53,072 nt of DNA from an uncultured Planctomycetia bacterium (GTDB lineage: Bacteria > Omnitrophota > Gorgyraeia > Duberdicusellales > 4484-171), in the NCBI GenBank assembly GCA_964536195.1, contig CAZHVO010000001.1, positions 1-53,072 on the forward strand, read 5' to 3'. The position numbers and the translations under genes are program-made. Shown in pieces: positions 3,811 to 25,266 of this stretch (positions within the stretch are counted from its first letter, which is position 1; the number at the start of each line of letters is the position of its first letter). Below the pieces are notes generated by a model. The model worked only from the letters and a program-made list of their open reading frames with translations. It did no database searches and was not told the DNA's origin.

Positions 3811-4454
3811 TGAAAAATGCTTTTGCTGCCTTAAGAGAAGAGATGGTCTCACGGCAAATTCTTAGTCGTGGGATTGATGATAGTAGCCTCCTAGAGGCTT
3901 TCCGGAACATTCCCCGCCATTTTTTTGTTCCTGAGGATCAGAAGAAATTCGTCTACAATGATTGTCCTCTTCCTATTGGTTGGGGGCAGACTATCTCTCA
4001 ACCCTATATAGTTGCTTTAATGACTTTACACTTAAGCTTGAGCAAAGGAACTTTGGTTTTAGAAGTAGGGACTGGTAGCGGGTACCAGGCTGCAATTCTT
4101 GCTTTCTTAGGAGCTCGTGTCTATACTATAGAGAGATTCTCTCCTTTGGCTAAGGAGGCAAAGAGAGTTCTGGATTCTTTAGGGATGAAAATTCGGATAA
4201 GAGAAGGTGATGGAACTCTAGGTTGGTCTGAACATGCTCCTTATGAGCGGATAATCGTTACTGCCGGTACCTCTAAGATACCGCCATTACTTATTGAACA
4301 GCTTAAGGTAGGGGGAAAAATGGTTATCCCTCTAGGCCAGAGGTTTCGTCAGGAGCTAACCGTGGTAGAGAAGATTTCTGAAACGGAAATTAAAGAAGAA
4401 CGAGTTTGTGGATGTATGTTTGTTCCTTTGGTAGGTGAGTATGGTTGGAGTTGA
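3810..4454 (+). CDS. pcm: Protein-L-isoaspartate O-methyltransferase
   Basis: TISQPYIVA and the VLEVGTGSGYQAA SAM-binding motif. 214 aa, as in Pcm. Confidence 0.9.
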   Translation: MKNAFAALREEMVSRQILSRGIDDSSLLEAFRNIPRHFFVPEDQKKFVYNDCPLPIGWGQTISQPYIVALMTLHLSLSKGTLVLEVGTGSGYQAAILAFLGARVYTIERFSPLAKEAKRVLDSLGMKIRIREGDGTLGWSEHAPYERIIVTAGTSKIPPLLIEQLKVGGKMVIPLGQRFRQELTVVEKISETEIKEERVCGCMFVPLVGEYGWS

Positions 4455-4902
4455 TGAACTTAAAGTAGTAGGTGTAGCAGCTTTACCTATTTTTGAATTA
4501 AGGGGGGCAATTCCTTTAGGTTTTTCTCTAGGCATACCTTTAGCCCGTCTTTATCCTTTAGCCCTACTAGGGAATCTAATTCCGGTCTTACCTTTATTAT
4601 TGTTCTTTAAGTATTTTTTTCATCACCTCGAGAATATAAAGTTTATAGGTAGATTTTTTAAATGGTGGTTTCGCCGGGTAGAGAAAAGATCAAGGCTCAT
4701 AGAGCGTTGGGGATTTTGGGGCTTGGTTCTTTTTGTAGCTATACCCTTGCCAGTAACCGGGGCTTGGACCGGAACAGCAGCTGCGACTTTATTCGAGATT
4801 AAGGTAAAAAGAGCCTTTCTGGCGATTTCATTGGGAGTTGCCATTGCCGGTGTAATAGTAAGTTTAGTGGTTAGTGGGGTCATTCAGTTGTGGTTTACTT
4901 AA
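4435..4902 (+). CDS. Small multidrug-export-like membrane protein (COG2426-type)
   Basis: Four predicted TM helices and the FELRGAIPLG motif typical of this family. The start is uncertain (GTG 4435 or ATG 4441). Confidence 0.55.
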   Translation: MSMVGVDELKVVGVAALPIFELRGAIPLGFSLGIPLARLYPLALLGNLIPVLPLLLFFKYFFHHLENIKFIGRFFKWWFRRVEKRSRLIERWGFWGLVLFVAIPLPVTGAWTGTAAATLFEIKVKRAFLAISLGVAIAGVIVSLVVSGVIQLWFT

Positions 4903-5142: not shown

Positions 5143-6498
<1,356 letters not shown>

Positions 6499-6523
6499 TT
6501 AAAGACTAGATAATAGAGAGAAA

Positions 6524-6558
6524 TAAAAACGCCTCCGAGTTTCCGGAGGCGTTTTTTT
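6524..6558. terminator. Bidirectional intrinsic terminator between convergent gdhA and glnA
   Basis: AAAAACGCCTCCG-AGTTTC-CGGAGGCGTTTTTTT: a GC-rich stem flanked by an A-run and a T-run. Confidence 0.85.
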
Positions 6559-6588
6559 ATGCCTTTAGTTTTCTGTTGTTTTTAGAAG

Positions 6589-8124
6589 TTAAAGCATAGG
6601 AAGATACTTTTTTATCTCATGTTGGGTAATCTGAATTCGGTAATCTTCCCACTCCCTTTTCTTATTAAATAAGAATCTATTGAAGATATGGTTTCCTAAG
6701 GTTTCCCGCACAAAATTGCTCTTTTCTGTTTCAACAATAGCTTCAAATAGATTTCCAGGAAGTGAGGTTAGGCCTCTTCTTTCCCTTTCTTCCATAGCCA
6801 TACGATAGATATTAGGTTCAACTACTGGAGGAATCAGGTATTTTTTCTCTATACCTTCTAAGCCTGCCGCTAACATTACCGCAAAAGCTAAATAAGGATT
6901 ACAAGCAGGGTCAGGGCAACGCAATTCTACCCGAGTTGCTTTTTCATTTCCTGGCCGGTACACCGGAACCCTAAGTAGAGCTGTACGGTTCTTCTGTGCC
7001 CAAGAAGCATATACTGGTGCTTCATATCCGGTAATCAGACGTTTATAGGAATTTACCCACTGAGCAGTCAGAGAGGATATCTCTCGAGCATGTTTTAATT
7101 CACCAGCAATGAATCCTTTAGCGATAGAGGATAGATGGTGTTTATCCTTCTTGTCGAAGAAGGCATTTTGATTTCCTTTAAATAGGGATTGATGAACATG
7201 CATTCCTGAGCCATTTACTCCAAACAGAGGTTTAGGCATAAAGGTTGCATATACACCGTTTTGCTGAGCAATTTCTTTAATCACATATTTGCAGGTTATT
7301 ACGTTGTCAGCCATAGTAAGGGCATCATTATACTGGAGATCAATCTCATGCTGTGAGGGTGCTACCTCATGGTGAGTTGCCTCCATGGGTATACCCATCT
7401 CTTCCAGAGTTCTTACAGTTTTGTTTCTTAAAGTATTGGCTAAATCATTGGGTATTAGCTCAAAGTAGGAGCCTTCATCTATTACCTCAGGTTTACGGTC
7501 AGATTTAAAGTAGAAGTATTCTATTTCCGGACCAACATAAAAGGTAAAGCCCATCTTTTTTGCTCGAGCCAATGCCCGTTTTAAAACATAACGAGTATCC
7601 CCGGCATAAGGAGTATGGTCGGGATTAAGTATATCGCAGAGCATCCTGGCGGTAGGATTAGTTTCAGCTGTCCAAGGTAATACCTTGAATGTGCTAGGGT
7701 CAGGTAAAGCAAGAATATCACTCTCCTCAGCCTCAGCAAATCCAGTAATAGAGGAACCATCAAAACCTTTACCATGCTCAAAGGCCCCTTTTAACTCGTT
7801 TTGAGTAATTGAAACACACTTTAAAGTTCCTAAAATATCTACGAACCATAACTGTATAGTTCTTATATTTTCTTTATGTATTGTTTCCAAGACTTTTTTT
7901 ATTTCTTCTTTGCAATTCTTCTTGTTGCTCGAAGAAACGCTTACCTTAGTTTCTTTTTTGACCGGGGGGGTTGTCTTGTCGGGAAGTTGGTTTTTGGGGA
8001 TTATATATCTTTTTCCCATCCTTTCAGCGTAGAGCGCTCCATGCTTTATTCGCTCAATAACTGCCTGACGAGATATCCCTAAAAGCTTAGCTGCTTGAGT
8101 TGGGCTAAAATATTCTTGTTCCAT
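6589..8124 (-). CDS. glnA: Glutamine synthetase type I (alpha-like) with N-terminal excisionase/MerR-like HTH extension
   Basis: GS motifs FDGSSITGF, HHEVAPSQHEID, NGSGMHVHQS, NSYKRL and RVELRCPD. The N-terminus carries the HTH SPTQAAKLLGISRQAVIERIKHG. ATG 8124 follows AAAGGAGGAAAA, whereas the track start 8154 lacks an SD. Confidence 0.85.
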   Translation of the reverse strand: MEQEYFSPTQAAKLLGISRQAVIERIKHGALYAERMGKRYIIPKNQLPDKTTPPVKKETKVSVSSSNKKNCKEEIKKVLETIHKENIRTIQLWFVDILGTLKCVSITQNELKGAFEHGKGFDGSSITGFAEAEESDILALPDPSTFKVLPWTAETNPTARMLCDILNPDHTPYAGDTRYVLKRALARAKKMGFTFYVGPEIEYFYFKSDRKPEVIDEGSYFELIPNDLANTLRNKTVRTLEEMGIPMEATHHEVAPSQHEIDLQYNDALTMADNVITCKYVIKEIAQQNGVYATFMPKPLFGVNGSGMHVHQSLFKGNQNAFFDKKDKHHLSSIAKGFIAGELKHAREISSLTAQWVNSYKRLITGYEAPVYASWAQKNRTALLRVPVYRPGNEKATRVELRCPDPACNPYLAFAVMLAAGLEGIEKKYLIPPVVEPNIYRMAMEERERRGLTSLPGNLFEAIVETEKSNFVRETLGNHIFNRFLFNKKREWEDYRIQITQHEIKKYLPML

Positions 8125-8186
8125 TTTTCCTCCTTTTTTAGGCATTTTAGTCATTATGTAAACAACATGTCTTTTACTACATTACA

Positions 8187-8215
8187 ATTGTAAACTATTA
8201 CTTTACACTTGTCAA
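8187..8215 (-). promoter_or_regulatory. Putative sigma70 promoter of glnA (TTGACA-17-TACAAT) overlapped by palindromes
   Basis: On the minus strand, TTGACA lies at 8215..8210 and TACAAT at 8192..8187. TTACAATTGTAA (8182-8193) and TGTAA-N9-TTACA (8189-8207) overlap the -10 element and the spacer. Confidence 0.45.
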
Positions 8216-8344
8216 GTATTTTTTTGATATTTTTTACATTATGCAAAAATATAGCTAAATATTGACTTTTAAACGAGAAAACGGCGATTTTGACCATTAA
8301 TTAGTAGGGGTATGCCCGTATTCCTGAAATTAAGCAAATTTTAT

Positions 8345-8372
8345 TTGGCTTTTATTTTTTTAAGTGTATAAT
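8345..8372 (+). promoter_or_regulatory. Putative sigma70 promoter of the nuoE-like operon (TTGGCT-16-TATAAT)
   Basis: TTGGCT at 8345-8350 and TATAAT at 8367-8372, about 22 nt upstream of the SD/ATG at 8395. Confidence 0.4.
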
Positions 8373-8394
8373 TCTAATTTAAGAGGGTGGTTAA

Positions 8395-8868
8395 ATGAAG
8401 CTTGACCTTTCTACTACAAAAAAAATAATTCAACAATACCAGAACAAAAAAGGGGTATTGATTCCTTTGCTCCAAGACATTCAGTCTGCTTATGGGTATG
8501 TTCCTAAAGAAGCTATAGATTTGATAGCTAAGGAATTAGGGTTTTATCCTGTAGAGATTTATGGGGTGTTGACATTTTATACTCAGTTTTATCTTTTTCC
8601 ACGGGGTAAATATACGATAAAAGTTTGCCAGGGTACTGCTTGTCATGTTATGGGCGGAAAGGAAATTCTTGATTACTTGTCGGATCAATTAGGAATAAGC
8701 GAGGGGGAGACTACAAAAGACGGTTTGTTTTCTTTAGAAAGGGTTGCTTGTCTTGGGTGTTGTGGCATGGCGCCTGTTGTTATGATTGATAAGGATTTTT
8801 ACGGGAGATGTACAGTTCAGAAGCTAGATGAGCTTCTCAAAAAGTATAAATCAAAAAAGGTTAGATAG
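8395..8868 (+). CDS. NuoE/HydC-like [2Fe-2S] thioredoxin-fold ferredoxin subunit
   Basis: Cys pattern CQGTACHV...CLGCCGMAP typical of NuoE / 24-kDa subunit family. 157 aa. Confidence 0.85.
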   Translation: MKLDLSTTKKIIQQYQNKKGVLIPLLQDIQSAYGYVPKEAIDLIAKELGFYPVEIYGVLTFYTQFYLFPRGKYTIKVCQGTACHVMGGKEILDYLSDQLGISEGETTKDGLFSLERVACLGCCGMAPVVMIDKDFYGRCTVQKLDELLKKYKSKKVR

Positions 8869-10623
8869 ATGGAGACAAAGATACTTATATGTATGGGTAC
8901 AAGTGGCATTTCAGCCGGAGCTGAAGATGTGGCGAGAATTTTTGAAGAAGAGCTAAGGCGTCACAAACTGACTGATAAATGTAAGATTGTAAAAACTGGC
9001 GATCGCGGTCTATTTAGGGATGTGTTAGTAGATATTATTAGTTCTAAACTTGGTAGGGTTGTCTACGAGTATATTAAACCTGAAGATGTGTCTAAAATTG
9101 TAGAAAGCCATCTTTTACGGGGTGAGCCAGTAGGAGAATTGCAGGCTAAGAAAGACTATGAAGAGTTTTTCTCAGGTCAAATGCGAATTGTTCTTTCTAA
9201 TTGTGGAGAAATTGACCCTGAGGATATAGATGATTATATAAATCATGGCGGCTATATGGCGTTAAAGAATCTTTTTGATACAACCCCAGATAAAGTTATA
9301 GAAGAGGTTAAGAGTTCGGGTTTAAAAGGTAGAGGCGGAGCAGGATTTCTTACCGGATTAAAGTGGCATTTTGCTAGAATTGCCGAGAGTAGTGAGAAAT
9401 ATGTGATATGTAATGCCGACGAGGGTGACCCTGGTGCATTTATGGATCGTAGTATCTTAGAGGGCGACCCTCACTCTGTAATTGAAGGAATGATTATCGC
9501 CGGTTATGCTATCGGTGCCAGTATTGGATATATCTATTGTCGCGCTGAATATCCATTAGCCATAAAGAGACTAAACAAGGCAATATCGCAAGCTAGAGAA
9601 AAGTTATACTTGGGGAAAAATATTTTAAATAGTAGTTTTTCGTTTGATATTAACATAAAAGAAGGTGCTGGTGCGTTTGTTTGTGGAGAGGAAACAGCCC
9701 TTATAGCGTCTATCGAAGGGCGTCGAGGTATGCCAAAATCTAGACCGCCATTTCCTGCCCAAGAGGGGTTATGGGGCAAGCCTACCTTGATCAATAATGT
9801 AGAAACGCTTGCCAATATAAGGCATATTATTGCAAAAGGGGCCGAGTGGTTTTTTGGGATAGGCTCTGAAAATAGCAAGGGTACCAAGGTTTTTGCTTTG
9901 GCAGGAAAAGTTAAAAATACAGGCTTGGTAGAGGTTCCTATGGGAACTACTATCCGCCAGCTCATATACGGCCCCGGTGGCGGAACGGTAAATAAAAATA
10001 TAGATTTTAAAGGTGTGCAGATTGGCGGTCCATCAGGCGGATGTCTTCCCGAAAGCCTTCTAGACACTTCTATCGATTTTGAATCTATTACTAAAACTGG
10101 TGCAATTATGGGTTCTGGAGGTATGGTTGTAATGGATAAACTTACCTGTATGGTTGATATAGCAAAATTCTTTTTAGATTTTACCGTAGCTGAATCGTGT
10201 GGTAAGTGCGTACCTTGCAGGGTTGGTTTAAAAAGGATGCTAGAGGTTCTTGAAGGAATTACAGAAGGTAAGGGTAAGCAGGAGCATATTAAATTTCTGC
10301 AAGAGATGTCGGTTACTATAAAAGACACTGCTCTTTGCGGCCTGGGTAATACAGCTCCTAATCCGGTGTTGACAACGATAAGGTATTTTTTAGATGAATA
10401 CAAAGCTCACATAGCAGATAAATTTTGCCCTTCTCACGTATGCGTAGAGCTTTTAAAATTCGAAGTTATCGAGAGTAAGTGTGTTAAATGCGGAAAATGT
10501 TTTACGGTTTGTCCGGTCGGTGCTATCGATTGGAAAAAGAAAGAATGCGCAAAGATAAATAAGGAAAAATGTATAAAGTGTAAGGCATGCATTAATGCCT
10601 GTCCATTTATGGCAATAGAATGA
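8869..10623 (+). CDS. NuoF/HydB-like NAD(H)-binding FMN/FeS flavoprotein subunit
   Basis: GRGGAGFLTGLKW FMN/NADH motif, ESCGKCVPCRVG N3-cluster motif and two C-terminal CxxCxxCxxxCP ferredoxin motifs. The start abuts the nuoE-like stop. Confidence 0.85.
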   Translation: METKILICMGTSGISAGAEDVARIFEEELRRHKLTDKCKIVKTGDRGLFRDVLVDIISSKLGRVVYEYIKPEDVSKIVESHLLRGEPVGELQAKKDYEEFFSGQMRIVLSNCGEIDPEDIDDYINHGGYMALKNLFDTTPDKVIEEVKSSGLKGRGGAGFLTGLKWHFARIAESSEKYVICNADEGDPGAFMDRSILEGDPHSVIEGMIIAGYAIGASIGYIYCRAEYPLAIKRLNKAISQAREKLYLGKNILNSSFSFDINIKEGAGAFVCGEETALIASIEGRRGMPKSRPPFPAQEGLWGKPTLINNVETLANIRHIIAKGAEWFFGIGSENSKGTKVFALAGKVKNTGLVEVPMGTTIRQLIYGPGGGTVNKNIDFKGVQIGGPSGGCLPESLLDTSIDFESITKTGAIMGSGGMVVMDKLTCMVDIAKFFLDFTVAESCGKCVPCRVGLKRMLEVLEGITEGKGKQEHIKFLQEMSVTIKDTALCGLGNTAPNPVLTTIRYFLDEYKAHIADKFCPSHVCVELLKFEVIESKCVKCGKCFTVCPVGAIDWKKKECAKINKEKCIKCKACINACPFMAIE

Positions 10624-12695
10624 TTAATTTAACTATTAACAACACAAAAGTAAAGGTAGAAGAAGGCAGAACAGTGCTTGAGGTAGCGCTTAATGCCGGC
10701 ATATACATACCTAATTTATGCTATCATCCCGACATACCCCCCATAGGCGCATGTCGTTTATGTATTGTTGAGATTGATGGCATGAGAGGATTTCCCACAT
10801 CTTGCACTACCAGAGTAAGGGAGGGTATGGTTATTCACACTAACACTCCTAGAGTCCAGGAATTAAGAAAGAACATTATTTGGTTTATTTTGAGCGAGCA
10901 TCCAGAGAGAATAGATAAGTCGTCTCAGTTAAAAAAGGTTGTTGATTGGGTAGGAATAAAAAATCCTCTTTCCGGCTATGTTCCTCATTTAAGGAATTTA
11001 CCGATAATTACAAATGAACCTTTATTCATCAAGGATTTTGATCGGTGTATTTTGTGCGGTCGCTGTATCAGCATGTGTCAGGGGATAAGAAATGTTGGGG
11101 CTATAGGATTCATAAATCGTGGTATAAATACGATTATAGGTACTAATTGCAATTTAGCCATGGAAGAAGCTGGTTGTAAATTCTGTACAGCTTGTGTGGA
11201 AGTATGTCCTTCAGGAGCATTAGTCGATAAAAATAAGTTTGAAGAAAAGGATCGCGAGAAAACAATTCTACCTTGTAAATATGCATGTCCTGCGGGAATA
11301 GATATACCAAGGTACGTGAGACTAATCGCTGAGGGAAGATTCCAGGATTCTCTAGAGGTAATTAGGGAGACTGTTCCATTCCCGTATGTTTTAGGTTGCG
11401 TATGCCATCGTCCCTGTGAAGAAGTATGTCGTAGAGGCGAAGTCAACGAAACTATGTCTATAAGAGAGTTAAAGAGGTTTGTGGCTAAGCAGGATTCAGG
11501 TAGGTGGAGATCAAAGATTACGATTGCACCGGATACAGGTAAAAAGGTTGCAATCGTCGGTTCCGGACCCTGTGGCTTAACTGCTGCTTGGTTTCTTAAG
11601 AAATCGGGCCACTCTGTAACTGTCTTTGAGGCTTTATCAAAACCAGGTGGGATGATGAAAATAGGCATTCCTGATTACAGGTTGCCAACAGAGATTTTAA
11701 ACCGCGAAATTAAAGATATAGAAAATATTGGAGTAAAAATAAAGACTAATACAAAAATAGAATCGGTTGATAATCTTTTCGATCAGGGGTTTGATGCAAT
11801 AATTTTAGCTTTAGGTGCACAGAAAGGAATAAAAATGGGTATTCCTGGCGAGGACGATCCTCGGGTTCTTGATGGAATTTCTCTGTTAAGGTCTATAAAT
11901 CTTGGAGAAAAGGTTAAGCTTTTAGGTGAGGTGGCTGTTGTTGGCGGAGGAAATGTAGCGGTAGATGTGGCAAGGAGTGCATTAAGGGTTGGAGCTAAGA
12001 AAGTTAATATTTTATATCGTCGGACTCGAGAAGAAATGCCGGCATATTCAGAAGAGATAGAAGAGGCATTGAAGGAGGGGGTGGATATAAGTTTTCTCAT
12101 AGCTCCACAGAAAGTTTTGTCTGGAGATAATAGATTAAAGGTAGAATGTATTCGGATGGAGCTGGGTGAACCTGATTCAAGCGGGAGGAGGCGTCCGGTT
12201 CCGATTAAGGATAGTGAATTTATAATTGAAGTCGATAAGCTGATAATAGCTATCGGACAAAGGTGTGTTGTACCTGCTGAGTTTAGCATTACAACAGATA
12301 AGAAAGGTAAAATTAGTGTGGATCAGGAGACCTTAGCTTGCTCAAGACAAGGGGTGTTTTCAGGGGGAGATGTAGTAAGCGGGCCGGCTTCTATTATTGA
12401 AGCTATTGATGCTGGCAGAAAATCCGCAGTTTCTGTAGATAAGTATTTAGGGGGAGAGGGCCAGGTTTATCAGAGATTTATCCCTGAGGAGCAAGAAAGC
12501 CCTTGCTTAAATAGAGAAGAGGGTTTTGGTTGTCGTAAGAGAGCTGAAATGACCTTACTTCCCGTTAATAAGAGAGTACACAATTTTTCTCAGGTAGAAT
12601 ATGGTTTTGATGAAAAGACAGCAGTAGAAGAAGCAAAAAGATGTTTAAGGTGCCAATTACGATTGAAGATTTCTAAGCCTCCTTTACCTTACTAA
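10620..12695 (+). CDS. Fusion protein: NuoG/HydA-N-terminal-like FeS domains plus GltD/NfnB-like NAD(P)H FAD oxidoreductase
   Basis: N-terminal 2Fe-2S (CYHPD..CRLC) and CxxCxxCxxxC motifs. From about residue 300 it has GltD-like VAIVGSGPCGLTAAWFL and VVGGGNVAVD Rossmann motifs. No H-cluster (TSCCP) motif is present. Confidence 0.75.
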   Translation: MINLTINNTKVKVEEGRTVLEVALNAGIYIPNLCYHPDIPPIGACRLCIVEIDGMRGFPTSCTTRVREGMVIHTNTPRVQELRKNIIWFILSEHPERIDKSSQLKKVVDWVGIKNPLSGYVPHLRNLPIITNEPLFIKDFDRCILCGRCISMCQGIRNVGAIGFINRGINTIIGTNCNLAMEEAGCKFCTACVEVCPSGALVDKNKFEEKDREKTILPCKYACPAGIDIPRYVRLIAEGRFQDSLEVIRETVPFPYVLGCVCHRPCEEVCRRGEVNETMSIRELKRFVAKQDSGRWRSKITIAPDTGKKVAIVGSGPCGLTAAWFLKKSGHSVTVFEALSKPGGMMKIGIPDYRLPTEILNREIKDIENIGVKIKTNTKIESVDNLFDQGFDAIILALGAQKGIKMGIPGEDDPRVLDGISLLRSINLGEKVKLLGEVAVVGGGNVAVDVARSALRVGAKKVNILYRRTREEMPAYSEEIEEALKEGVDISFLIAPQKVLSGDNRLKVECIRMELGEPDSSGRRRPVPIKDSEFIIEVDKLIIAIGQRCVVPAEFSITTDKKGKISVDQETLACSRQGVFSGGDVVSGPASIIEAIDAGRKSAVSVDKYLGGEGQVYQRFIPEEQESPCLNREEGFGCRKRAEMTLLPVNKRVHNFSQVEYGFDEKTAVEEAKRCLRCQLRLKISKPPLPY

Positions 12696-12856: not shown

Positions 12857-15800
12857 ATGCCGCGATATGAAGACATTAAAAAAGTTTTAATCATTGGTTC
12901 AGGGCCAATAATTATTGGACAAGCCTGTGAGTTCGATTATTCCGGTACTCAAGCCTGTAAAGCCTTAAAAGAAGAGGGGTACGAGGTTGTTCTGGTTAAT
13001 TCTAATCCGGCAACTATTATGACTGATCCCGGAATGGCTGATAAAACTTATATTGAACCTCTTACCGTTGAAAGTTTGGAACAGATTATCGAGAAAGAAA
13101 GGCCAGATGCCCTTCTACCTAACTTGGGCGGTCAAACCGGTCTTAATTTATCTTCGAGTCTTCATAAGTCTGGGGTTTTAAAGAAGTATGGAGTTAAGAT
13201 GATTGGTGTTGCGGCTGATGCCATTGAACGCGGAGAGGATCGTCTCATCTTCAAAGAGACAATGAAGAAATTAGATATCCCTCTTCCTGAATCTGAAATT
13301 AGTCATTCAGTAGAAGAGGCTGAAGCAGTAGCTGCCAAAATAGGCTATCCAGTAGTATTGCGGCCAGCCTATACAATGGGCGGAACCGGCGGAGGAATCG
13401 CTTATAATGTAGAAGAGTTAAGGGTTATTGTTACTCGAGGTTTATCAGTAAGCCTTGTTCATCAGGTTTTAGTTGAAGAAGCAGTAATTGGCTGGGAAGA
13501 ACTAGAGCTAGAAGTTGTACGGGATCATAAAAGTGCGAAGATTACCGTGTGTTTTATCGAAAATATTGATGCTATGGGTATTCATACTGGGGATAGCTTG
13601 TGTTCTGCCCCAATGCTTACCGTAAAAAAAGAGATACAAGAGAAGTTACAAGTGTATTCTTACCGGATAGTTGATGCGATTGGAGTTGTCGGCGGGACTA
13701 ATATTCAATTTGCCCATAATCCTAAGGATGACCGTATAGTAGTTATTGAGATTAATCCTAGAACATCTCGTTCTTCAGCTTTGGCTTCAAAAGCAACTGG
13801 TTTTCCAATTGCTCGAATCTCAACAAAGTTAGCTGCTGGATTATCAATGGATGAGATTCCTTATTGGAAGGAAGGAACTTTAGAGAAGTATGAACCTAGC
13901 GGTGACTATGTTGTTGTTAAGTTTGCCCGCTGGGCCTTTGAGAAGTTTCCTAAGGCAAAGGATATCTTAGGAACTCAGATGAAGGCAGTTGGTGAGGTAA
14001 TGAGTATAGGAAAGACATTTAAAGAGGCTTTCCAGAAGTCTATCCGTTCTTTAGAAATAGGCCGGGCTGGATTAGGGGTTGATAAATTCAAAGCCCTTTC
14101 GATAGAAAAACTAAGAGGAAAATTAAGTGTGCCTTCAAGTGAGCGGATATTTTTAATATATGAGGCCTTGCGTAGAGGAATCTCTGTTGAAGAGCTCCAC
14201 AAAGTTACTTATATTCATCCTTGGTTTCTTAACGAGATAAAAGAGCTAGCTGATTTTGAAGAGGAGATAATTAAGAATAAGTGGAAAGATTTGCCTGATG
14301 CTAAGCTAATTAAAGCAAAGGAGTTAGGATTCTCAGATAAATATCTAGCTCAGATTTTTAAGATAAAAGAAAAAGAAGTAAGAGAGAAGAGATTATTCCT
14401 TGGGAAGATTGAATGCTATGATGTAGTTCCAGTTAGCGGAGTAGAAAACGCAGCTTACTATTACTCAACATATATCGGAGAAGATAAGGTATCGGTGGCA
14501 GCGAATAAGAAGATATTAATCTTAGGTGGCGGGCCTAACCGGATTGGCCAAGGAATAGAGTTTGACTACACTTGCGTTCATGCAGCTTTTGCTTTGCGGG
14601 ATGAAGGCTATGAGTCAGTTATGGTAAATTGTAACCCTGAGACAGTATCTACTGATTATGATACCTCTAATAAGCTCTACTTTGAGCCGTTGACCGTAGA
14701 AGACGTACTGAGTATCTATGAGAAAGAGAAACCACAAGGAGTTATTGTTCAGTTTGGCGGGCAAACTCCATTAAATATCGCTCAGGAATTAAAAGATAAC
14801 GGAGTAAATATTTTAGGTACTTCACCTGAGAGTATCCGTTTAGCAGAAGACAGAGAATACTTTCGGGAGAGAATGATTGCTCTTGATATTCTTCAACCTG
14901 AGAGTGGTACAGCCCGGTCATTGGATGAGGCTGTAGGAATTGCCAAAAAAATAGGTTACCCTCTTATGGTTCGTCCTTCTTTTGTCTTAGGAGGCCGGGG
15001 TATGAAAATTATCTATAATGAAACAATGTTACAAAAATACGCCCAGGAAGCTATTAAGGTGAGTCCGGAATTTCCTATGCTTATTGATAGATTCTTAGAA
15101 CATGCTATCGAAGCTGAAGTTGATGCTCTTGCTGATGGGGACGATGCTTGTGTTGTTGCAGTAATGGAGCATATAGAACTTGCTGGAGTTCATTCTGGTG
15201 ATTCTGCTTGTGCAATCCCAACCAGGACTATTAAGAAAGAACACCTGGAGACTATTGAGGATTATACTGTTAAAATCGCGAAGGAACTTAAAGTTGTTGG
15301 GTTGATGAATATTCAGTATGCTATCTGTGACGATAAGGTATATATTTTGGAAGCTAACCCTAGAGCGTCTCGAACAGTACCTTTTGTTTCAAAGATCATG
15401 GCAATTTCTATGGCTCGGATTGCAACCCAATTAATGCTTGGCAAGAAACTGAAAGATTTTCCTGAGCTTCAGAAACCTCGCAAGGTCCCTTATGTTGGGG
15501 TTAAAGAGGCAGTTTTTCCTTTCAATATGTTTCCGGAAGTAGACCCTTTGTTAGGTCCTGAGATGAGGGCTACCGGAGAGGTAATGGGCATTGCTGATAC
15601 TTTTGGGCTTGCTTTTTATAAGGCTCAATTGGCTGCAAATTTAAAGCTTCCTACAGAGGGAAATGTTTTGCTTACCGTAACCGATAATGATAAGCCGGAG
15701 CTAATCCGTATAGCTAAGGGGTTTGGTAAGCTTGGGTTTAACATTTACGCTACCCAAGGAACTAGTCGCTTTCTTAAAGAAAACGGTATAGATAGTACCG

Positions 15801-16060
15801 AAGTAAAGAAGCTTCATGAGGGAAGGCCTAATCTCTCTGATGCGATTAAAAATGGAGATATCCATCTAATTATAAATACACCTATTGGAAGTAATAGTAA
15901 ATACGATGATAGTTATATTCGTATTATGGCTATTCAACAGAAGATTCCTTACATTACATCTATGGCTGGTGCCCAAGCCAGCTTTGAAGGGATTGAGGCA
16001 TTGAGGGGAAAGAAGACTTCACCAAAATCTCTTCAGGAATATCACCAAGAAGTGATATAA
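12857..16060 (+). CDS. carB: Carbamoyl-phosphate synthase large subunit
   Basis: 1067 aa with duplicated ATP-grasp halves (GSGPIIIGQACEFDYSG and GGGPNRIGQGIEFDY) and a C-terminal MGS-like domain. Confidence 0.97.
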   Translation: MPRYEDIKKVLIIGSGPIIIGQACEFDYSGTQACKALKEEGYEVVLVNSNPATIMTDPGMADKTYIEPLTVESLEQIIEKERPDALLPNLGGQTGLNLSSSLHKSGVLKKYGVKMIGVAADAIERGEDRLIFKETMKKLDIPLPESEISHSVEEAEAVAAKIGYPVVLRPAYTMGGTGGGIAYNVEELRVIVTRGLSVSLVHQVLVEEAVIGWEELELEVVRDHKSAKITVCFIENIDAMGIHTGDSLCSAPMLTVKKEIQEKLQVYSYRIVDAIGVVGGTNIQFAHNPKDDRIVVIEINPRTSRSSALASKATGFPIARISTKLAAGLSMDEIPYWKEGTLEKYEPSGDYVVVKFARWAFEKFPKAKDILGTQMKAVGEVMSIGKTFKEAFQKSIRSLEIGRAGLGVDKFKALSIEKLRGKLSVPSSERIFLIYEALRRGISVEELHKVTYIHPWFLNEIKELADFEEEIIKNKWKDLPDAKLIKAKELGFSDKYLAQIFKIKEKEVREKRLFLGKIECYDVVPVSGVENAAYYYSTYIGEDKVSVAANKKILILGGGPNRIGQGIEFDYTCVHAAFALRDEGYESVMVNCNPETVSTDYDTSNKLYFEPLTVEDVLSIYEKEKPQGVIVQFGGQTPLNIAQELKDNGVNILGTSPESIRLAEDREYFRERMIALDILQPESGTARSLDEAVGIAKKIGYPLMVRPSFVLGGRGMKIIYNETMLQKYAQEAIKVSPEFPMLIDRFLEHAIEAEVDALADGDDACVVAVMEHIELAGVHSGDSACAIPTRTIKKEHLETIEDYTVKIAKELKVVGLMNIQYAICDDKVYILEANPRASRTVPFVSKIMAISMARIATQLMLGKKLKDFPELQKPRKVPYVGVKEAVFPFNMFPEVDPLLGPEMRATGEVMGIADTFGLAFYKAQLAANLKLPTEGNVLLTVTDNDKPELIRIAKGFGKLGFNIYATQGTSRFLKENGIDSTEVKKLHEGRPNLSDAIKNGDIHLIINTPIGSNSKYDDSYIRIMAIQQKIPYITSMAGAQASFEGIEALRGKKTSPKSLQEYHQEVI

Positions 16061-25194: not shown

Positions 25195-25266
25195 TGCCCG
25201 GTAGTGTAATCGGTAACACATCAGCTTTTGGAGCTGACTTTCCTGGTTCGAGTCCAGGCCGGGCAA
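25195..25266 (+). tRNA. tRNA-Gln (anticodon UUG)
   Basis: Manual cloverleaf fold. The acceptor stem is TGCCCGG/CCGGGCA and the anticodon stem TCAGC/GCTGA with loop TTTTGGA (anticodon TTG). The T arm is CCTGG-TTCGAGT-CCAGG. 72 nt, no encoded CCA. Confidence 0.85.

Follow-up and report, generated by a model that had tools for sequence, protein, structure and literature searches.

A glutamine synthetase with a winged helix-turn-helix domain fused to its N-terminus in Omnitrophota, and conserved palindromes over its own promoter

The DNA analysed here, hereafter called the window, is the whole stretch of 53,072 nucleotides (nt) of contig CAZHVO010000001.1, from an uncultured bacterium placed in the Omnitrophota. 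We describe one gene on its minus strand, which encodes a glutamine synthetase (GS) with a helix-turn-helix (HTH) domain at its N-terminus, together with the promoter of this gene. The open reading frame (ORF) spans 6589..8154, and its coding part, running from the ATG at 8124 to the TAA stop codon at 6591..6589 (6589..8124, minus strand), encodes a protein of 511 amino acids (aa) with full-length homologues. A ribosome-binding site, GGAGG, was read at 8129..8133 on the same strand, ending 4 nt before the ATG, and AGGAGG-like sites were found at the equivalent position in orthologues. At 63 orthologous loci, the N-termini start with M-x-x-(E/D)-Y-L-S-P-T and align with ATG 8124; since these loci begin at the equivalent position, this ATG is the start shared by the relatives. 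The ORF, its start and the GGAGG are thus as given in a preliminary description of this DNA. An exact-sequence look-up with either start (511 or 521 aa) found no identical database record for the protein.

Three parts were distinguished in the protein, which we call HTH-GS. A winged HTH (wHTH) domain occupies aa 1-47 (7984..8124, minus strand), and is followed by a disordered linker rich in Pro, Lys and Ser at aa ~48-65 (7930..7983, minus strand), which holds a run of seven C, and by a type I-alpha GS core (6604..7929, minus strand), subdivided into an N-terminal helix (aa 66-84), a beta-grasp domain (aa 86-168) and a catalytic domain (aa 175-507). Pfam, NCBIfam and AlphaFold2 agreed on this arrangement of HTH, linker and complete GSI-alpha core, which the preliminary description had also proposed. 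The layout is bifunctional, with a predicted active enzyme and a predicted DNA-binding domain in one polypeptide.

The HTH domain was matched by Pfam HTH_17 (PF12728) over aa 5-47, with an E-value of 1e-5 and 26.2 bits against a cut-off of 27 bits, and by the NCBIfam model 'excise' (TIGR01764) with 28.8 bits, equal to its cut-off; most orthologues have a precomputed PF12728 match. AlphaFold2, used to model monomers, folded aa 5-43 into a beta-alpha-alpha-beta-beta winged helix with a predicted local distance difference test (pLDDT) of about 80-90 (80.5 in one model), with helices at residues 8-15 and 19-28 and wing strands at 34-36 and 39-43. The recognition helix reads S18-R19-Q20-A21-V22, and residues R19, Q20, I26, A33, G37, Y40 and I41 were invariant among 67 sequences. 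When the model was compared with known structures by Foldseek, the top matches were the excisionase Pukovnik Xis (4j2n), the DNA-bound BldC (6ama), RacA on a 14-bp palindrome (5i44), the RdfS excisionase and DNA complexes of the MerR family, with TM scores of 0.6-0.7, probabilities of about 1 and E-values of 0.06-0.3, which are modest because the domain is short. The enzyme-regulator fusions RbkR (5trd) and BirA were also among the structural neighbours. The assignment to a MerR/excisionase type, made earlier, agrees with the model and its structural relatives, and the profile matches lie just below or at their cut-offs. No MerR or MerR_1 match of Pfam was obtained in HTH-GS at E<=1, and no GlnR or TnrA chain was retrieved by the HTH profile against PDB at E<=10 or within the top 50 Foldseek matches. 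After the domain, pLDDT fell below 50 over aa 51-67, and the N-terminal helix of GS begins at aa 66.

Among 1.84 billion representative proteins, the nearest relatives of the HTH were Omnitrophota proteins of ~230-250 aa with four tandem HTH_17 repeats (P0123, P0125-P0127, P0330, P0345 and P0350; loci L207-L211, gene at 4001-4700). Three genomic contexts were retrieved for such genes. Each places the gene next to a giant ORF of between 1876 and >7000 aa, two of these ORFs contain Laminin_G_3 domains, and repeated GTTAAC/GTTAATAATTG motifs precede the gene. The fused family was present as fragments only in the N-terminal-profile search at 50% clustering, which gives no distribution of the fusion.

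That distribution was obtained from two other searches. At least 120 protein clusters with 68-90% identity and 100% query coverage were found among 5.8 billion proteins; the fused homologues were 500-580 aa long, nearly all combined PF12728, PF03951 and PF00120, and the named sources of the clusters, under generic database names, were Candidatus Omnitrophota. In a scan of GTDB species representatives, 63 loci matched residues 1-129 over their full length, so that HTH, linker and the beginning of GS are all covered. A small number of these loci carry the label Planctomycetia or Methanosarcinales, and almost all fused genomes belong to Candidatus Omnitrophota. In homologue alignments the GS core was ~76% identical, and residues ~48-78 varied freely in sequence and length. 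A neighbour-joining tree of GS cores parted 17 unfused from 54 fused proteins by a single split, indicating a single origin of the fusion, which was retained as the members of the fused clade diverged down to 68% identity. Next to the 17 unfused GS genes that are closest, no glnR-like or other HTH gene was found. The fused architecture is conserved and is not an artefact.

The preliminary description had cautioned that the fusion depends on the length of the C7 run at 7964-7970, where, as read from the sequence, a shift of +1 or -1 truncates the frame. On this ground the single polypeptide might be the product of a sequencing error or of phase variation, the true arrangement being a glnR-like gene and a separate glnA. 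The probability of this explanation is practically negligible: 63 independent genomes and the clusters mentioned above encode the fusion with differing linkers, the C7 run is missing from the closest relatives, e.g., L001 and L002, and no internal start codon was conserved in the homologue alignments. The caveat was thus settled in favour of one polypeptide joining enzyme and HTH, which recurs at species level in related genomes. Programmed slippage at the C7 run was rejected too, as the run is not conserved.

Next, the GS core. Pfam detected Gln-synt_N (PF03951) at aa 86-168 (4e-27) and Gln-synt_C (PF00120) at aa 175-507 (3e-125), and the NCBIfam GlnA equivalog TIGR00653 scored 507 bits against a cut-off of 429. 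The closest cores in PDB were those of M. mazei (8ufj, 8tfb and 8s59), with ~482 bits and alignments running from aa 70-76 to aa 511, and the Firmicute entries of B. subtilis and relatives (4lnf, 4s0r and 7tfa) followed with ~440-455 bits; the PDB alignments of the core begin at query residues ~69-79. All of the top 15 PDB matches were archaeal or Firmicute type I-alpha GS aligned end to end, and type I-beta GS (1f1h, 2gls and 1hto) aligned over aa ~212-505 only, with far lower scores. By these alignments the subtype is alpha, not beta. The catalytic motifs EYFYF, HHEVAPSQHEID, NGSGMHVH, NSYKRL, GYEAP, NRTALLRVP and RVELRCPD are invariant and align identically with M. mazei GS, and the catalytic, metal-binding and nucleotide-binding residues E200, E202, H251, H252, E253, E260, H309, H311, R362, E368, R380, R385, E400 and R402 do not vary among the 67 sequences. 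With its catalytic motifs invariant, HTH-GS can be expected to work as a type I-alpha GS enzyme.

The effector sites gave another picture. The position of B. subtilis Arg62 (R66 in M. mazei) is occupied by E131, within an invariant A130-E131-A132 (7729-7737 in the window), and Glu is also found there in the nearest unfused GS proteins (L063-L080), hence in the whole clade. Arg62 is essential for feedback inhibition by glutamine, and GS without it is insensitive to glutamine (PMC10799026). In addition, the residues F24, R26, S38 and R87, which bind 2-oxoglutarate in M. mazei GS (PMC11957540), correspond to T89, Q91, C103 and T152 in HTH-GS; fused and nearest unfused proteins alike lack these ligands. 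As neither Arg62 nor these ligands are conserved, neither of the known type I-alpha effector switches is predicted, and the GS clade would be insensitive to both glutamine and 2-oxoglutarate. A glutamine feedback switch like that of B. subtilis, and an assembly switch driven by 2-oxoglutarate like that of M. mazei, were accordingly rejected as candidates. The replacement of Arg62 by Glu could also be taken to mean that the GS part is an inactive sensor domain and that nitrogen is assimilated by another GS. We regard this as very improbable, as every metal-, ATP- and glutamate-binding motif is invariant, the equivalog score exceeds its cut-off, the unfused sister proteins have the identical Glu, and the GS of M. 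thermolithotrophicus is active though it lacks Arg62 (PMC10799026).

Upstream of the gene, the promoter TTGACA-17-TACAAT (8215..8187, minus strand), noticed previously, agrees with the consensus at 11 of 12 positions, and no promoter-like site of the sigma-70 kind within 6400-8500 scored better. Two palindromic boxes lie over it. Box 1, TTGACAAGTGTAAA (8202..8215, minus strand), scored 27.6 bits and has the -35 hexamer (8215..8210) as its first six bases, and Box 2, TTTACAATTGTAAT (8181..8194, minus strand), scored 20.5 bits and carries the -10 hexamer TACAAT (8192..8187) at its centre. The perfect palindrome TTACAATTGTAA that had been described at 8182-8193 is present as stated. These scores come from a weight matrix built from other genomes only, with the window excluded; its sites in the window are 8199-8218 (27.6 bits) and 8178-8197 (20.5 bits), 21 bp apart, the next-best site in the 53 kb scored 7.0 bits, and the best of 20 shuffles reached 15.4 bits. 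Two outer half-sites form the arms of the inverted repeat I3: TGTAAA (8233..8238, minus strand), ~17 nt before Box 1, and TTTACA (8157..8162, minus strand), which lies 18 nt past Box 2 within the 5' untranslated region. They correspond to half-sites already recorded at 8234-8238 and 8157-8161 and proved to be conserved within the clade of the window. Since two boxes and two conserved outer half-sites are present, the promoter of the window holds six half-sites over ~80 bp.

The upstream 100 nt of the 63 orthologues were lined up, and 320 nt upstream were then scanned systematically. At the 63 orthologous loci the shared element was an 18-bp palindrome, aCTT(T/G)ACAA|TTGT(A/C)AAGt, normally in two copies. 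In total, 135 instances of the box were found at 60 of the 63 fused loci, with two or more boxes at 58 loci and three at 17; the three loci without a box have <225 nt of upstream sequence each. Box 1 always opens with the -35 hexamer TTGACA. The distance between the boxes is 21 bp in 22 of 61 aligned promoters, including that of the window, and here Box 2 contains the -10 hexamer (TACAAT/TACACT); in 33 loci it is 26-28 bp, and Box 2 stands directly after a TATACT -10 hexamer, over the transcription start. Because the sequence of Box 2 is kept in both promoter layouts, the palindrome is conserved independently of the promoter hexamers. The spacing of the inner TGTNA...TNACA pair is N9 in the window's clade and about N15 elsewhere. 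The repeat TGTAA-N9-TTACA (8189-8207), previously proposed as an operator element, is therefore present, but it is not the repeated unit and its spacing is a feature of this clade only; with Box 2 constant and the inner spacing variable, the conserved unit is TT(T/G)ACA-N2-TGT(A/C)AA. As for the outer half-sites, the upstream one is kept as (T/G)TGTAAAA at equal offset in the window and at L001-L006, L008, L010, L012, L015 and L017, and the downstream one as gTTTACAAA in the clade with 21-bp spacing, ~20-30 nt after Box 2 in relatives.

No boxes were found upstream of the 17 closest unfused GS genes (best score <=11.3 bits), a control set that includes metagenome-assembled genomes of Omnitrophota, Clostridia, Ratteibacteria and Elusimicrobiota. 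Because a single split separates the fused proteins in the GS tree, the co-occurrence of fusion and boxes amounts to one evolutionary event, not many. A hidden Markov model of the HTH, searched against six-frame translations of the window and 80 loci, matched GS N-termini only (64/64).

Boxes were also seen at a few other places. One subclade has, 130-150 bp farther upstream than Box 1, a third full box that falls within the 3' end of an lpxB-like gene (L042:3795, L046:3810, L059:1198, L061:3815 and L075:3800). At L043:5737 and L053:5710, boxes are found ~170-190 nt after the GS stop codon. Two more belong to loci with an unfused GS, one ~100 nt upstream of carB (L066:455) and one just after an Omnitrophota GS gene (L065:2220).

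A loose scan of metagenomes for the two-box pattern returned 120 loci, only 7 of which were HTH-GS promoters. Most lacked HTH-GS and carried another palindrome, centred on CG (TTGACACGTGTCAA). The double palindrome TTGACACGTGTCAA-N12ish-TTTACACGTGTCA is very common in L081-L200 (e.g., L083, L088, L110, L129 and L155), mostly on soil metagenome contigs; some autoregulated transcription factor, unrelated to HTH-GS, presumably uses it as its operator. Closer look-alikes were the promoters of operons for MNT-type wHTH-nucleotidyltransferase/HEPN proteins on contigs without HTH-GS, which read TTGACAnnTGTAA-N7-(T/A)TTACAATTGTAA(+TTACA) (L144:5748-5810, the same as L124; L202:2915-2990; L203:2940-2985). 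The promoter layout of the window's clade was found at L124/L144, similar boxes at the homologue loci L202-L204, and weak or partial ones at L201 and L205/L206. This likeness may be a convergence on palindromes built from promoter hexamers, or it may reflect a shared binding specificity.

The comparison of promoters across genomes lends strong support to the earlier proposal that this GS would bind its own operator. Judged by sequence, the layout is one of repression, with operators on both promoter elements, a spacer of 16-17 bp and a consensus -35 hexamer; the HTH that the regulated gene itself encodes is the simplest candidate for the repressor. We consider it probable that HTH-GS represses its own gene. 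Several observations weigh against this conclusion. The link between HTH and boxes is correlative, and the co-occurrence of the two, being a single event, carries no statistical independence. Raw counts in the window do not help: TTKACANNTGTMAA, allowing up to one mismatch, is matched twice where 0.75 matches are expected, a count that 15 of 100 shuffled sequences also reach; as such counts are not significant, the case rests on position and conservation. The HTH_17 score of the window protein is 0.8 bit under the Pfam threshold. Within a box, only 7 bp separate the centres of the pentamers, which leaves little room for two HTHs; an outward-shifted half-site, CTTTAC/GTAAAG, would give 10 bp between centres. 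The motif is not unique to HTH-GS, since palindromes of TTGACA/TACAAT type also stand at unrelated wHTH promoters. Finally, with Glu in place of Arg62 and the 2-oxoglutarate ligands missing, there is no obvious metabolite switch.

Some of these points would suit a different arrangement, in which the boxes serve a separate trans-acting regulator and the HTH of GS is used for nucleoid tethering, for other DNA targets or for contact with proteins. The link between fusion and boxes reduces to one phylogenetic event; related two-box promoters before MNT-type genes, in contigs without HTH-GS, imply that other wHTH families use look-alikes, and the four HTH_17 repeats of the Omnitrophota paralogues would match the four half-sites of two boxes. 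We nevertheless judge a separate regulator unlikely. No other HTH of the GS-fused type was found within the window or within ~4 kb of the 63 fused genes, and autoregulation is the simplest explanation for an invariant recognition helix that stands beside an operator core which is invariant as well. The proteins with four repeats were themselves rejected as the box-binding factor, in view of the giant ORFs downstream of their genes and of upstream repeats that are of the GTTAAC type and not boxes, with a best weight-matrix score of <=6 bits; they look like the evolutionary source of a captured HTH rather than a box-binding protein.

A second alternative keeps the DNA binding by HTH-GS and changes its role, making the protein chiefly a global nitrogen regulator, or an activator in the manner of MerR, of many genes, with autoregulation as just one of its outputs or with activation in place of repression at its own promoter. 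The MerR-like fold is compatible with this, as are the few extra sites described above (the third distal boxes, those after the GS stop at L043 and L053, and the one upstream of carB at L066), and the site scans were confined to the window and the flanking DNA of the loci. This role is improbable all the same. No further box site exists in the 53-kb window beyond 8178-8218, although gdhA, carB and a gltD-like gene are nearby, and ~570 kb of flanking DNA contained only about a dozen near-consensus sites besides the glnA promoters. Moreover, MerR activators typically act on promoters with spacers of 19-20 bp, and the spacer of the window promoter has the optimal 17 bp, with boxes on both hexamers.

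For repression by HTH-GS we propose the following course. By homology, the usual GS dodecamer would form. In E. coli GS filaments the N-terminal helix makes head-to-head contacts between dodecamers (PMC11800386), and this helix should therefore be exposed on the ring face. With the N-terminal helices on the outer faces of the ring, the dodecamer should present about six HTHs per face on linkers of ~20 residues, at a high local concentration. Pairs of HTHs would then bind the two 14-18-bp palindromes, which in this strong promoter cover the -35 hexamer and either the -10 hexamer or the transcription start, as the comparison of genomes suggests, and in the window's clade the two outer half-sites might be bound too. 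Occupied boxes would exclude RNA polymerase, and the enzyme would thereby repress its own synthesis.

Whether binding would respond to the metabolic state is a separate matter. It is plausible, though somewhat doubtful, that a ligand or the oligomeric state of GS modulates DNA binding in some way. The possibilities are a response to substrate-driven movement of the N-terminal domain or to the oligomeric state, or plain negative feedback dependent on concentration. More speculative still is the full picture of the dodecamer as a multivalent, metabolite-responsive repressor, in which the six HTHs of one face would settle on the ~80-bp array of six half-sites, wrapping or occluding the promoter, and the catalytic or oligomeric state would shift occupancy; we offer this only tentatively. 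If true, direct transcriptional self-control would replace allosteric control in a GS with neither the Arg62 lock nor the 2-oxoglutarate pocket. No GS is so far known that both senses nitrogen status and binds DNA in the absence of a partner protein, and such a dodecamer would be the first. A natural GS with a DNA-binding domain of its own would in any case make the simplest possible nitrogen circuit, of one protein and one operator.

In some fused-GS orthologues, a structured leader of ~100-200 nt follows the boxed promoter (L005:3920-4003, L006:2905-2990, L023:3915-4003, L024:135-226 and L027:3912-4003; also L011 and L032); the window has no such leader. The last hairpin of the leader, UUAAUUCGCAC...GUGCUCAUUAA, stops 1-2 nt short of the ribosome-binding site; compensatory changes were seen in 8 of its 19 pairs, from 5 sequences only. 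No known RNA element was found at the glnA leaders in Rfam, with gathering thresholds for the window and 7 loci and in E-value mode for L027. The leader may be a second, post-transcriptional layer of control.

Around the gene, the window contains a local cluster of genes for nitrogen and glutamate metabolism. A strong intrinsic terminator with a 14-pair stem and a T-run (6525..6556, minus strand) follows the GS gene and, being bidirectional, also serves the convergent gdhA (5158..6498, plus strand), which encodes an NADP-specific glutamate dehydrogenase. On the other side, a divergent operon includes NuoE-like and NuoF-like genes and encodes a third protein that joins a NuoG/HoxU-like N-terminus to a module resembling GltD, the small subunit of glutamate synthase, and carB then follows; these plus-strand genes lie at 8395-12695 and 12857-16060. 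Apart from the GS gene, the 53 kb contain just one other long gene on the minus strand. The sole Rfam match was a tRNA gene at 25195-25266 on the plus strand (RF00005, 66.8 bits).

GS is the textbook hub of nitrogen control, and every known system, as far as we are aware, couples it to transcription via partner proteins (GlnR/TnrA, PII/NtrBC or NrpR). Full-text searches of a literature with incomplete coverage brought up no account of a GS to which a DNA-binding domain is fused, and a 2025 review of GS regulation and moonlighting makes no mention of such a fusion. Several known proteins nevertheless resemble parts of HTH-GS. The closest solved relatives of its core, GlnA1 of M. mazei (8tfb/8s59, ~482 bits), have no N-terminal HTH, and their 2-oxoglutarate ligands are not kept in HTH-GS. 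The HTH shares its beta-alpha-alpha-beta-beta fold with RacA, BldC and the excisionases of phages and integrative conjugative elements (TM 0.65-0.70); these are stand-alone factors of DNA architecture or recombination directionality, however, with no fused enzyme. In RacA, two domains of this kind together recognise an inverted repeat of 14 bp. BirA, PutA, NadR and the archaeal RbkR come nearer in design, each being an enzyme with an N-terminal DNA-binding domain that acts at a promoter of its own pathway. They differ from HTH-GS in working as ligand-induced dimers, whereas HTH-GS would be a dodecamer with 12 DNA-binding domains. GS would join this short list of enzyme-repressor fusions.

The nearest functional parallel is the GS-GlnR/TnrA circuit of Firmicutes. 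There, GlnR is monomeric, and feedback-inhibited GS holds two GlnR molecules via flexible linkers of >40 residues, so that their wHTH domains dimerise on two operators at the glnRA promoter (PMC9249791); Travis et al. 2022 showed that GS serves the tethered GlnR wHTH domains as a template (PMC9249791). Both systems combine a type I-alpha GS with MerR-like wHTHs on flexible linkers and control of the own gene, which is a prediction in the case of HTH-GS, and both have two operators over the promoter, with identical half-site pentamers TGTNA/TNACA. The differences are also clear. In HTH-GS the HTH is covalently attached at the N-terminus of GS, whereas GlnR and TnrA are separate proteins that dock a C-terminal tail in the active site. 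The HTH-GS domain stands outside the GlnR/MerR sequence families, and no XG(E/D)XSRF tail motif follows it, the hypervariable linker being continuous with GS. The operator of GlnR is TGTNA-N7-TNACA, while the unit at HTH-GS promoters is TNACA-N2-TGTNA, and Arg62 of Bacillus GS is replaced by Glu (E131).

Collectively, the best reading of these likenesses and differences is that HTH-GS would be a covalent counterpart of the Bacillus GS-GlnR circuit, to which the analogy does not transfer literally. Omnitrophota with small genomes may economise on regulators in this way, and HTH-GS could serve synthetic biology as a compact sensor-regulator part. It also offers a test of the Firmicute model, in which GS acts as the template for tethered wHTH domains.

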